From IMG/VR virus record IMGVR_UViG_2579778802_000015: a stretch of DNA of 48,953 bases, one strand, 5' to 3'. How positions within the stretch are numbered: position 1 is the first letter of the stretch; each line of letters opens with the position of its first letter. Shown here piece by piece: positions 37,508-40,325 of this stretch. This DNA is from a virus (taxonomy: Duplodnaviria > Heunggongvirae > Uroviricota > Caudoviricetes). A program made the translations under genes and the position numbers. Below the pieces are notes generated by a model, which was not told the DNA's origin, did not search any database, and saw only the letters and a list, made by a program, of their open reading frames with translations.

Positions 37508-37567
37508 ATGCGTGGAAACGCATATGGCCTTAGTTGGTCAGATATCTTGGGGCTCGCTTTGTCAGCG
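37508..37567 (-). promoter_or_regulatory. Putative nutR (boxA-like CGCTGACAAAGCG plus hairpin ATGCGTTTCCACGCAT)
   Basis: The same 13-mer occurs downstream of pL at 40291-40303 in the sense orientation; each is followed by a short hairpin. Confidence 0.4.
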
Positions 37568-37606
37568 ACGTAGGACGAATGTCCATTGTGAAAATAGCGG
37601 TGTTAC

Positions 37607-37807
37607 TTATGCAGTTGTTTTTTTGTTACTTGGGAAGGGCTTTATTTCTTCCGCATAAACGCTTCCATCAGCGTTTATAGTTAAAAAAATCTTTCGGCCT
37701 GCATGAATGGCCTTGTTAATCGCGCTTTGATATACGCCGAGATCTTTAGCCGTCTTGGTTTGCCCAAAGCGTATTGCATAATCTTTCAGGGTTATGCGTT
37801 GTTCCAT
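37607..37807 (-). CDS. cro: Cro repressor (lambda type)
   Basis: 66 aa; [66 protein letters not shown] matches lambda Cro as recalled. Confidence 0.97.
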
Positions 37808-37907
37808 ACAACCTCCTTAGTACAGGCAATCATTATCACCGCTAGAGGTATAATAGTCAACACGCACGGTGTTAGATATTTATCCCTTGCGGTGATAGAT
37901 TTAATGC
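37808..37907. promoter_or_regulatory. OR operator region with divergent pR and pRM (lambda type, a few substitutions)
   Basis: TATCACCGC...GGTGATA operator half-sites, TTGACT -35 and GATAAT -10 of pR recognisable. Confidence 0.85.
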
Positions 37908-38621
37908 ATGAGCGCAAAAAAGAAACCGTTAACACAAGAGCAGCTTGAGGACGCACGTCGCCTTAAAGCTATTTATGAAAAAAAGAAAAATGAGCTTGGC
38001 TTATCCCAAGAATCTGTCGCAGACAAGATGGGGATGGGACAGTCAGGCGTTGGTGCTTTATTTAATGGCATCAATGCATTAAATGCTTATAACGCCGCAT
38101 TGCTTGCAAAAATTCTCAACGTTAGCGTTGAAGAATTTAGCCCTTCAATCGCCAGAGAAATCTACGAGATGTATGAAGCGGTTAGTATGCAGCCGTCACT
38201 TAGAAGTGAGTATGAGTACCCTGTTTTTTCTCATGTTCAGGCCGGGATGTTCTCGCCTGAGCTTAGAACCTTTACCAAAGGTGATGCGGAGAGATGGGTA
38301 AGCACAACCAAAAAAGCCAGTGATTCTGCATTCTGGCTTGAGGTTGAAGGTAATTCCATGACCGCGCCAACAGGATCCAAACCTAGTTTTCCTGACGGGA
38401 TGTTAATTCTGGTTGACCCTGAGCAGGCTGTTGAGCCAGGTGATTTCTGCATAGCCAGACTTGGTGGTGATGAGTTTACCTTCAAGAAACTGATCAGGGA
38501 TAGCGGTCAGGTGTTTCTACAGCCACTAAACCCGCAATATCCAATGATCCCATGCAATGAGAGTTGTTCCGTTGTGGGGAAAGTTATCGCTAGTCAGTGG
38601 CCTGAAGGGACGTTTGGGTGA
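37908..38621 (+). CDS. cI: CI repressor (lambda immunity)
   Basis: 237 aa; differs from lambda cI as recalled at about 3 residues (MSAKKK..., ...ILNVSV..., ...WPEGTFG). Confidence 0.97.
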
Positions 38622-38667
38622 CAAGAAGCACAGGTATTAACAATAACTTTCATGGTGATACGAATCA

Positions 38668-39210
38668 GTGGCTAAAAAAGGCGACTTTAAGCCTACCCAG
38701 AAAGAGGTTGACCAAGCTATTACTCGCTTGAAAAAAGTAACTTTTAGCGGAGTTACATGGACCGGAAGTGAGGGACGAACCCCAATCTGGTTTAAATTGG
38801 ATCTCAAAGCTTTTGATGAAATTGGCAACCCAATCACAGGCATAAGATTTATGCTTCACTGGCGTCCTCCTATCGTTGAAGGGGTGGATATAGTGAAGAT
38901 TTCATTTGTGATGTTTCTTCATGACAGGCGCATTTACGCGCTTGATCCGTACCCTGCGGATAACAAGCCACACCGTAATAAATCTATAGTGAACCATCCA
39001 GATTTTGTTGAGGTGGCTCGAGGTCCTCACTATCACATGTACTTCGAATCAGCTGGGGAAGAAATTGCACTTAAGCTTGAAACGAACATCAAGCCAGATG
39101 ATTTTTTTGGCTACTGGAATTATTTTTGCGAGGCGCTTAATATCATATATGAAGGCAGCCCACCTTTACCTAATCAAGATAAATCAGGTCAGTTATCATG
39201 GGAAATGTAA
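38668..39210 (+). CDS. Hypothetical protein A (180 aa, GTG start) in the rexA slot
   Basis: MAKKGDFKPTQKEVDQAITRLKK...; co-oriented with cI, 46 bp downstream; no resemblance to RexA. Confidence 0.7.
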   Translation: MAKKGDFKPTQKEVDQAITRLKKVTFSGVTWTGSEGRTPIWFKLDLKAFDEIGNPITGIRFMLHWRPPIVEGVDIVKISFVMFLHDRRIYALDPYPADNKPHRNKSIVNHPDFVEVARGPHYHMYFESAGEEIALKLETNIKPDDFFGYWNYFCEALNIIYEGSPPLPNQDKSGQLSWEM

Positions 39211-39974
39211 CGTGTTCAACAGTCATATCTAAGCTCGGGTTTGAATGCCACCCAATGAGCGACACGTTGCTGCGCGTTATTAGTCCATTCACATACTACG
39301 ATGATTGTGAGCAGATAAGTGTATTCGTTCAAGAGATGAGTGGTCAGTATAGGGTTACAGACTACTGCGATACATTGATGAATATTGAATCACGCGGCAT
39401 CCACCTGACTAAAAAGAAAATTGATCTGATCAGGTCATCACTCGCTTCGCAAGGAATTTCATTAAATGACTCTGGAGAGATATCTGCGTGGGCAGATGAG
39501 TCGTCCGTTGGACAGGTAACTGCAAATGTTATTCGTGGTGGGATTCTTGCATCCGCCCAAACTGCTGATTGGTATGCTGAGGTCAAAGACGATAAGTTCG
39601 AAAAATGTGTAATCAGTTACTTAAAATCAGCAGGGCTTGGGAAGCGACTAGCCTTAAAGGAAAAAGTGAAAGGTATTAGTGGGCATAACATTACTGTTCC
39701 GTTAACGCTAAGGAATGAGTCTCGACTAATACCACCAAAACGCGGGTTTACGGTAAGCCTTGCCAGCAGTAAGGGATGGAATACTGCCCACTCAACAGTT
39801 GGGAAGATTGTTGACTTAAGTCAGGTCGTTCCTGACATAAACAATAGATTTGTAATAGTTGACAGCGATGGGTTAACACCTGAGCTACAGCAACTATCAC
39901 TACTATTTAATGATACCGCACGAGTGTTGCCATTCCATACCAGAGACTCTTGGATTGAGTCTCTGGTAGCCTAG
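39198..39974 (+). CDS. Hypothetical protein B (258 aa; alternative start at 39255) in the rexB slot
   Basis: Overlaps gene A by 13 bp; followed by an intrinsic terminator; no resemblance to RexB. Confidence 0.7.
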   Translation: MGNVTCSTVISKLGFECHPMSDTLLRVISPFTYYDDCEQISVFVQEMSGQYRVTDYCDTLMNIESRGIHLTKKKIDLIRSSLASQGISLNDSGEISAWADESSVGQVTANVIRGGILASAQTADWYAEVKDDKFEKCVISYLKSAGLGKRLALKEKVKGISGHNITVPLTLRNESRLIPPKRGFTVSLASSKGWNTAHSTVGKIVDLSQVVPDINNRFVIVDSDGLTPELQQLSLLFNDTARVLPFHTRDSWIESLVA

Positions 39975-39977
39975 AAA

Positions 39978-40006
39978 AACCCGGCCTCAGCGCCGGGTTT
40001 TCTTTG
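39978..40006 (+). terminator. Intrinsic terminator ending the cI-A-B transcript (timm-like)
   Basis: ACCCGGC-ctcagc-GCCGGGT hairpin followed by TTTCTTTG. Confidence 0.75.
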
Positions 40007-40157
40007 CCTCACCCCCCCCACCTAAAGACACATAACCAAATGTATTTATTGAAAAATAAATAGATACAACTCACTAAACATCGCAATTCAGATCTCTCGA
40101 TCACCTCCCAAGCCACTCAACCCTGCAAAAAATAAATCCATATAAAAAACATACAGA

Positions 40158-40228
40158 TAACCATCTGCGGTGATAAATTATCTCTGGCGGTGTTGACATA
40201 AATACCACTGGCGGTGATACTAAACACA
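40158..40228 (+). promoter_or_regulatory. OL operators and pL promoter (lambda type)
   Basis: TATCTCTGGCGGTGTTGACATAAATACCACTGGCGGTGATACT matches lambda pL/OL as recalled; -35 TTGACA at 40193-40198, -10 GATACT at 40216-40221. Confidence 0.92.
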
Positions 40229-40290
40229 TCAGCAGGACGCACTACTCACCAGGGCGGTGAATATACAACGATTCAAATATGAATCTACGG

Positions 40291-40325
40291 CGCTGACAAA
40301 GCGCAATAACCAAAGTGAACTTTGG
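40291..40325 (+). promoter_or_regulatory. Putative nutL (boxA-like CGCTGACAAAGCG plus hairpin CCAAAGTGAACTTTGG)
   Basis: 13-mer shared with the pR-proximal site; located between pL and N. Confidence 0.4.

Follow-up and report, generated by a model that had tools for sequence, protein, structure and literature searches.

We analyzed a stretch of 48,953 nucleotides (hereafter the window) from a virus of the class Caudoviricetes (Duplodnaviria; Heunggongvirae; Uroviricota; IMG/VR record IMGVR_UViG_2579778802_000015), and found that a 13-nucleotide sequence, CGCTGACAAAGCG, which occurs once in each of two early operons, is very probably the core of the boxB element of the N-utilization (nut) sites nutL and nutR, bound by the 933W/H-19B-type N protein. 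The evidence for boxB in this phage comprises its sequence, orientation, fold and covariation, its co-inheritance with the N allele, and its identity to published H-19B sites; binding of N and antitermination would be expected here by analogy with the lambda, P22 and H-19B systems. The first-pass annotation of this DNA had taken the two 13-mers to mark nutL and nutR, which is borne out both by where they lie in the two early operons and by their identity to the H-19B nut. It had also labelled them boxA, and this sub-element label is what we correct, so that boxA, spacer and boxB are now correctly placed in this phage.

The 13-mer is present in exactly two copies, at 40291-40303 on the plus strand and at 37555-37567 on the minus strand, and no third copy was found in the window when up to two mismatches were allowed. 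Dinucleotide-preserving shuffles contained a mean of 0.01 exact copies, with two or more copies in none of 100. As had been claimed initially, both copies are in the sense orientation in the early transcripts, one about 63 nucleotides from the pL start and the other 39 nucleotides past the stop codon of cro. The 13-mer is self-complementary about a 5-nucleotide centre and forms the stem-loop CGCU-GACAA-AGCG, and the stretch common to the two sites exceeds 13 nucleotides, reading CUACG-N-CGCUGACAAAGCG-N, where the two variable positions are G and C at nutL and U and A at nutR and pair each time. The resulting 15-mers are GCGCU-GACAA-AGCGC at nutL (40290-40304, plus strand; loop 40295-40299; −8.5 kcal/mol, z −3.2) and UCGCU-GACAA-AGCGA at nutR (37554-37568, minus strand; loop 37563-37559; −6.4 kcal/mol). 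They differ solely in the outermost pair, a compensatory double change that is also the reason why the exact repeat ends at 13 nucleotides. The hairpin was kept when it was folded in contexts of 106, 111 and 256 nucleotides, including the whole leader.

Covariation of the stem was examined in 12 nut sites representing seven N alleles. In this alignment 96.7% of the cells were paired, and double changes were seen at three of the five pairs (GC, UA and CG at the outer pair), giving a covariation score of 0.597 compared to 0.125 for shuffles, a value that none of 500 shuffles reached; when the alignment was slid into other registers, pairing fell to 21-43%. The nut sites of the divergent phages were identified by direct reading of their leaders, since a strict search for a five-base-pair stem with a G...A pentaloop missed most of them because their loop has four nucleotides or is closed by a C.C mismatch. 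MAFFT left the tetraloop sites ungapped, and a placeholder N was put into the unpaired loop of the four GAAA rows, which left the paired columns untouched.

These results bear directly on the possibility that the 13-mer is a boxA, the linear element to which NusB and S10 bind, and that boxB is represented by the differing hairpins downstream of it. The 13-mer does begin with CGCU, as in boxA (CGCUCUUUA), and each copy does have a hairpin on its 3′ side: the short, differing hairpins that the first-pass annotation described are present at 40310-40325 on the plus strand (CCAAAGugaaCUUUGG) and at 37523-37508 on the minus strand (AUGCGUuuccACGCAU; with its flanks, UAUGCGUuuccACGCAUA, 37507-37524), and both fold. 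The 13-mer itself, however, is self-complementary and its stem covaries, while the downstream hairpins are unlike in sequence and lie at 6 and 31 nucleotides from it, so that one N could not read both. By position they correspond instead to hairpins of lambda, VT2-Sakai and P22 that are not part of nut: the one at 40310-40325 has a counterpart after boxB in the N leaders of all three, and the one between nutR and cII aligns with the cro-cII intergenic hairpin of VT2-Sakai and of lambda, which has tR1 in that region. The two hairpins are best described as an N-leader stem and a tR1-region hairpin, belonging neither to boxB nor to nut. In addition, a better boxA lies upstream at nutR, CGCUAUUUU (37599-37591, minus strand), with two mismatches to CGCUCUUUA and 22 nucleotides upstream of boxB. 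Together with the published assignments described below, this makes it very improbable that the 13-mer is boxA.

The boxB assignment agrees with existing work on H-19B and its relatives. The supplement of Muteeb et al. 2012 (PMC3526286) lists oligonucleotides antisense to the boxA (RS662), spacer (RS663) and boxB (RS664) of H-19B nutR, and in the window RS662 matches exactly at 37588-37611, where it contains the nutR boxA, RS663 matches exactly at 37569-37590, and RS664 matches at 37549-37572 with a single mismatch, which is outside boxB. In the mEp234 immunity region (GenBank EF120460), the same 15-mers are annotated as "putative nutL/nutR boxB" and the post-cro sequence CGCUCUUUU as boxA, so that both sources call the 13-mer boxB and the upstream element boxA. 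The nutR site of H-19B has two hairpins and its spacer, to which Rho binds, is protected by NusA and Rho (PMC3526286); N-dependent read-through has been demonstrated there in reporters/in vivo and in vitro (PMC4499122). The arrangement that we describe is thus already known from H-19B, 933W, HK97 and mEp234.

On comparison of the sequences, both sites of the window have the H-19B layout, which consists of a boxA position (fair at nutR, degenerate at nutL), ACAA(C/U), a spacer hairpin, CUACG and boxB, with the spacer hairpin and then CUACG directly 5′ of boxB at both sites. The nutL spacer hairpin, GAUUCA-aaua-UGAAUC (GAUUCAaauaUGAAUC; 40270-40285, plus strand), folds and occupies the position of the H-19B spacer dyad, and the nutR spacer hairpin, GGAC-auuc-GUCC (GGACauucGUCC; 37573-37584, minus strand), which also folds, lies within the sequence of oligonucleotide RS663. 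Three distinct stems are found in this one place, GGAC/GUCC, GAUUC/GAAUC and, in VT2-Sakai, GUCGA/UCGAC, and close relatives preserve the spacer stem by G.U variants (A-U to G.U). The spacer hairpin is conserved as a structure and not as a sequence.

We next consider the N protein and its relation to the nut sites. The N gene (40470-40853, plus strand; 127 amino acids) lies directly downstream of nutL, and its product is identical to 933W N at 126 of 127 residues and to H-19B N at 123 of 127, matches the Pfam family PF25694 (N_peptide; E 3.7e-14) and has an arginine-rich motif near residues 9-26. The relation between N and nut was surveyed in 240 related loci, in which N was located by tblastn; the 933W-type set comprised 80 loci of IMG/VR in which N has an identity of 98% or more. 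In this set the nutL 15-mer was found 142-456 nucleotides before N in every locus with enough upstream DNA (78 of 79, with the remaining one at −456), and the nutR 15-mer was found on the opposite strand, 1.4-3.7 kb away, in 61 of 62 loci, these being the ones for which 4.5 kb or more of upstream DNA was available; conservation of the 13-mer along with the N allele, on which its interpretation as a nut element had been made to depend, is therefore observed.

Other N alleles were accompanied by other hairpins. With the Sakai-type N (37% identical), nutL carried UGGCU-GAAA-AGCCA in all 79 loci and nutR carried UCGCU-GAAA-AGCGA in 57 of 58; with the N of g341c and SI5 (64-68%), the sites were CGGCU-GAAA-AGCCG and UCGCU-GAAA-AGCGA, respectively. 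With the P22-type N, they were GCGCU-GACAA-AGCGC at nutL (77 of 78) and CCGCC-GACAA-CGCGG at nutR (73 of 74), and the GACAA loop itself was present in 78 of 78 nutL sites, one of which has a G-U stem variant (GUGCU), and in 74 of 74 nutR sites, one of which has the 3′ arm AGCGG. Thus, across the 240 loci, the boxB loop goes with the N allele, being GACAA for the 933W and P22 types and a GAAA tetraloop for the Sakai type, as the claim that the nut sites must match the N allele had anticipated. By contrast, the DNA between the sites of loci with the 933W-type N and its boxB fell into at least five unrelated cro/oR groups, so that it is the N allele, and not the immunity region, that the nut site follows. 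The immunity groups were obtained by clustering the cro/oR and oL/pL ends, as k-mer clustering of the whole segment merged groups through shared accessory genes. In Salmonella phage SPN9CC (L084), the sequence at the place of the nutL boxB, about 120 nucleotides before N, is GCUCC-GUCAA-CGAGC, in which the loop is GUCAA and the closing mismatch is C.C, like that of P22 nutR; in its nutR boxB, UCGCU-GACAA-GGCGA, the stem includes a U.G pair. Its two sites therefore differ in loop, although its N is 85% identical to that of the window.

The survey, together with the positions of the mosaic junctions, also bears on the possibility that the 13-mer acts as a DNA-level palindrome, either as the site of a dimeric protein or as a recombination hotspot that makes the module junctions, and not as an RNA element. 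It is an imperfect inverted repeat and lies near the ends of the lambda homology, as this explanation would have it. Megablast identity to lambda covers 37596-40260 of the window, minus the rex region; on the right side the match runs through the cro stop codon as far as CCGCU, where boxA begins, with divergence beyond it, and on the left side divergence sets in about 33 nucleotides into the pL transcript. The homology to 933W and H-19B begins at CAUCAGCAGGACGC (pL start) and at GCAUAAGUAACACCGCU (cro stop), and both of these short stretches occur across differing immunities. The junctions thus precede boxB, one falling at boxA and the other at about +33 from the pL start. Furthermore, the loop is asymmetric and, in about 240 loci, reads in the transcript sense without exception at nutL and nutR, the loop identity goes with the allele of an RNA-binding protein, and the nutR stem of SPN9CC is kept by a U.G pair, which is meaningful solely in the RNA of that strand. 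A DNA-level role in place of an RNA element is accordingly given hardly any credence here. The junction positions also modify the first-pass proposal that the 13-mers define the mosaic break points on either side of the immunity region: the nut sites do lie just outside the lambda cassette, but the junctions themselves are at boxA and at the start of the leader and not at the 13-mer.

The cassette between the nut sites is that of lambda, in agreement with the earlier description of a 933W/H-19B-like N combined with lambda-like operators: cI is identical to its lambda counterpart at 234 of 237 residues and Cro at 64 of 66, and the operators are those of lambda except for one base of oR1. The N-nutL module and the nutR module thereby flank an exchangeable lambda-immunity cassette, an arrangement by which textbooks account for the need of any viable hybrid to receive N together with its two matching nut sites.

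Several observations weigh against the assignment of the 13-mers as boxB elements of working nut sites. The best boxA candidate in the nutL leader has mismatches to CGCUCUUUA at four of nine positions, and nutL therefore departs from the classical lambda definition of a nut site. H-19B N reportedly needs neither boxA, NusB nor S10, a finding attributed to Neely and Friedman in 2000, and the degenerate boxA of nutL is in keeping with this. In the 933W-type set, the single locus that lacks the nutR 15-mer (L071; IMG/VR, 1-6000) has a normal N and nutL, yet nothing recognisable as a nutR, a spacer or a cro-end junction in the 5-6 kb upstream of N; the same holds for a locus with the Sakai-type N (L140; 1-5000), and both may be rearranged or defective prophages. 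An Rfam scan of 36500-41500 at permissive E-values gave no match, because Rfam has no nut or boxB family, and a sequence search of PDB with N gave no match, because the N peptides in PDB are too short and divergent. Finally, the sole difference between the N of the window and that of 933W, R14H (codon 14, 40509-40511; NSRSHRRERL compared to NSRSRRRERL), falls within the arginine-rich motif, where it is a caveat relative to both 933W and H-19B. An identical R14H protein is encoded in five IMG/VR loci (L003-L007), in which boxB is unchanged.

The nutL boxA annotated in EF120460, CGCACUACU (window 40238-40246), is unconvincing; it has four mismatches and lies in a lambda-conserved stretch that is not boxA in lambda.

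By analogy with the characterized systems, the nascent pL and pR RNAs would each fold into a five-base-pair stem (GCGCU/AGCGC at nutL and UCGCU/AGCGA at nutR) closed by the GACAA pentaloop, to which the arginine-rich N terminus of N would bind. NusA would bind the spacer, and N and NusA would remain tethered to the elongating RNA polymerase, allowing it to read through downstream Rho-dependent and intrinsic terminators, namely, on the right, the Rho-dependent tR1 region that precedes cII and, on the left, the terminators beyond N. An overlapping role that does not exclude this one is that the nutR boxB and spacer also form part of the Rho loading site of tR1 and promote termination when N is absent. 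The lambda annotation has rutA and rutB flanking nutR, and the sequence from nutR to cII in the window is nearly identical to that of H-19B; such a role would nevertheless explain neither the nutL copy nor the way in which the loop tracks the N allele, and we give it an even chance.

The genes and promoters around these sites run in the reverse of the orientation of the customary lambda map. The cI gene is at 37908-38621 on the plus strand, and the lambda allele of cro, taken from the list of open reading frames (ORFs), is at 37607-37807 on the minus strand, followed by cII (37468-37172, minus strand). The promoter scan placed pL (TTGACA-17-GATACT) at 40193-40221 on the plus strand, with its −35 element at 40193 and the end of its −10 element at 40221; it is directed rightward in the window, overlaps the oL1/oL2 of lambda, has a predicted transcript start at about 40228 and has an annotated counterpart in mEp234 (EF120460). 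The scan likewise placed pR (TTGACT-17-GATAAT) at 37860-37832 on the minus strand, directed leftward and overlapping oR1/oR2, with operators that match lambda. Both oL2 and oL3 are identical to those of lambda, and the one divergent base, in oR1 (37834-37850; TACCTCTAGCGGTGATA compared to TACCTCTGGCGGTGATA in lambda), is changed in the same way in mEp234, all other operators checked being equal to lambda. A small hairpin, CACC-agggc-GGUG (40247-40259, plus strand), lies early in the pL transcript, between its start and the nutL spacer; the Salmonella phages SPN9CC, g341c and SI5 retain its stem, with changes confined to the loop, and it is broken in one IMG/VR variant.

Downstream of nutL, the N leader is itself structured (40310-40460, plus strand; z −3.9 for the whole leader). 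A long imperfect stem spans about 40315-40457, in which AACUUUGGGGUGUGGUG pairs with CACCACACCACCAAAGUU, the latter immediately before the Shine-Dalgarno sequence of N, and the 3′ arm of the 40310-40325 hairpin doubles as the base of this stem. In the H-19B N leader the interior and the arms differ, yet complementarity is retained (GGGGUGAAU with AUUCACCGCC). By its position, the predicted stem is similar to the one in the N leader of lambda, a target of RNase III.

In the slot occupied by rexA and rexB in lambda, between the cI stop codon and a lambda-like terminator at about 39976-40003, are two overlapping ORFs on the plus strand, at 38668-39210 and 39198-39974. The first encodes 180 amino acids, with a weak match to Pfam DUF6978 and a PADLOC match to PDC-M24A (E 4e-4), and the second encodes 258 amino acids, with matches to Pfam DUF1828 (E 2.5e-10) and PADLOC PDC-M24B (E 5e-7). 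Their position suggests that they are co-transcribed with cI in the lysogen and are a candidate prophage defence pair. Megablast of the pair against 50,697 phage records gave no match. In L140, which as noted above has a Sakai-type N, an ORF of 258 amino acids at 3790-4566, downstream of another repressor, has the same first 40 residues as the second of these ORFs.

The placement of these elements is of use in annotation, and also when one wants to predict the N alleles that can drive early transcription and, in the end, the expression of toxin in Stx phages.

The closest known systems are those of H-19B (AF034975) and 933W (CP111102), in which both boxB 15-mers and both spacers are identical to those of the window, as the alignment proposed in the first-pass annotation confirmed. 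Across H-19B, 933W, HK97, mEp234 and HK106, the boxB 15-mers, the spacer hairpins, the CUACG linker and the nutR boxA are all shared with the window, and the whole pL leader of 933W is near-identical. The window differs from most of these relatives in one base, the A (G in most of them) that closes the loop of the spacer hairpin at nutL, from the H-19B/933W group in one or two changes downstream of the nutR boxB, and in the R14H of its N. The immunity module between the nut sites is that of lambda in the window, as in HK97 and mEp234, and not that of 933W.

Lambda has its nut sites in the corresponding places of the two early operons, with a boxA, a spacer and a boxB of five base pairs and five loop nucleotides bound by the arginine-rich motif of N; unlike in the window, boxB is GCCCU-GAA(G/A)A-AGGGC, the spacer forms no hairpin and boxA matches well. 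In P22, the annotated nutL consists of the boxA CGCUCUUUAAC followed by a 15-mer, GCGCUGACAAAGCGC, that is identical to the nutL boxB of the window, and both sites have GACAA, for which the solved complex of the P22 N peptide with boxB (PDB 1A4T) shows a pentaloop with the C flipped out (PMC12550061). P22 N (gp24) shares its C-terminal polymerase-binding end and its Pfam family with the N of the window, while pairwise BLAST leaves the arginine-rich motifs unaligned, so that the 933W-type and P22 N proteins go with an identical nutL boxB and have dissimilar arginine-rich motifs. P22 is unlike the window in having a canonical boxA (CGCUCUUUA), a short, unstructured spacer with no hairpin, and the nutR boxB CCGCC-GACAA-CGCGG.

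These likenesses raise the tentative proposal, to which we give somewhat less than even chances, that the specificity of N among Stx and related prophages is set largely by the length of the boxB loop and that the 933W-type and P22 N proteins might cross-activate. Neither idea was found stated in the literature searched, and they may already be present in the H-19B or Sakai literature. The nut region of VT2-Sakai-type Stx2 phages has the same succession of ACAAC, spacer hairpin, CUACG and boxB, with almost identical nutR flanks, but differs from the window in its GAAA tetraloop, which is one nucleotide shorter, in its N, which is 37% identical and has another arginine-rich motif, and in its good nutL boxA (GCUCUUUAA). 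At nutR the window and VT2-Sakai have the same boxB stem and the same spacer hairpin, and within boxB a single loop nucleotide differs; on this proposal, the specificity class would be switched by a one-base insertion or deletion if N exchanged its arginine-rich motif as well.

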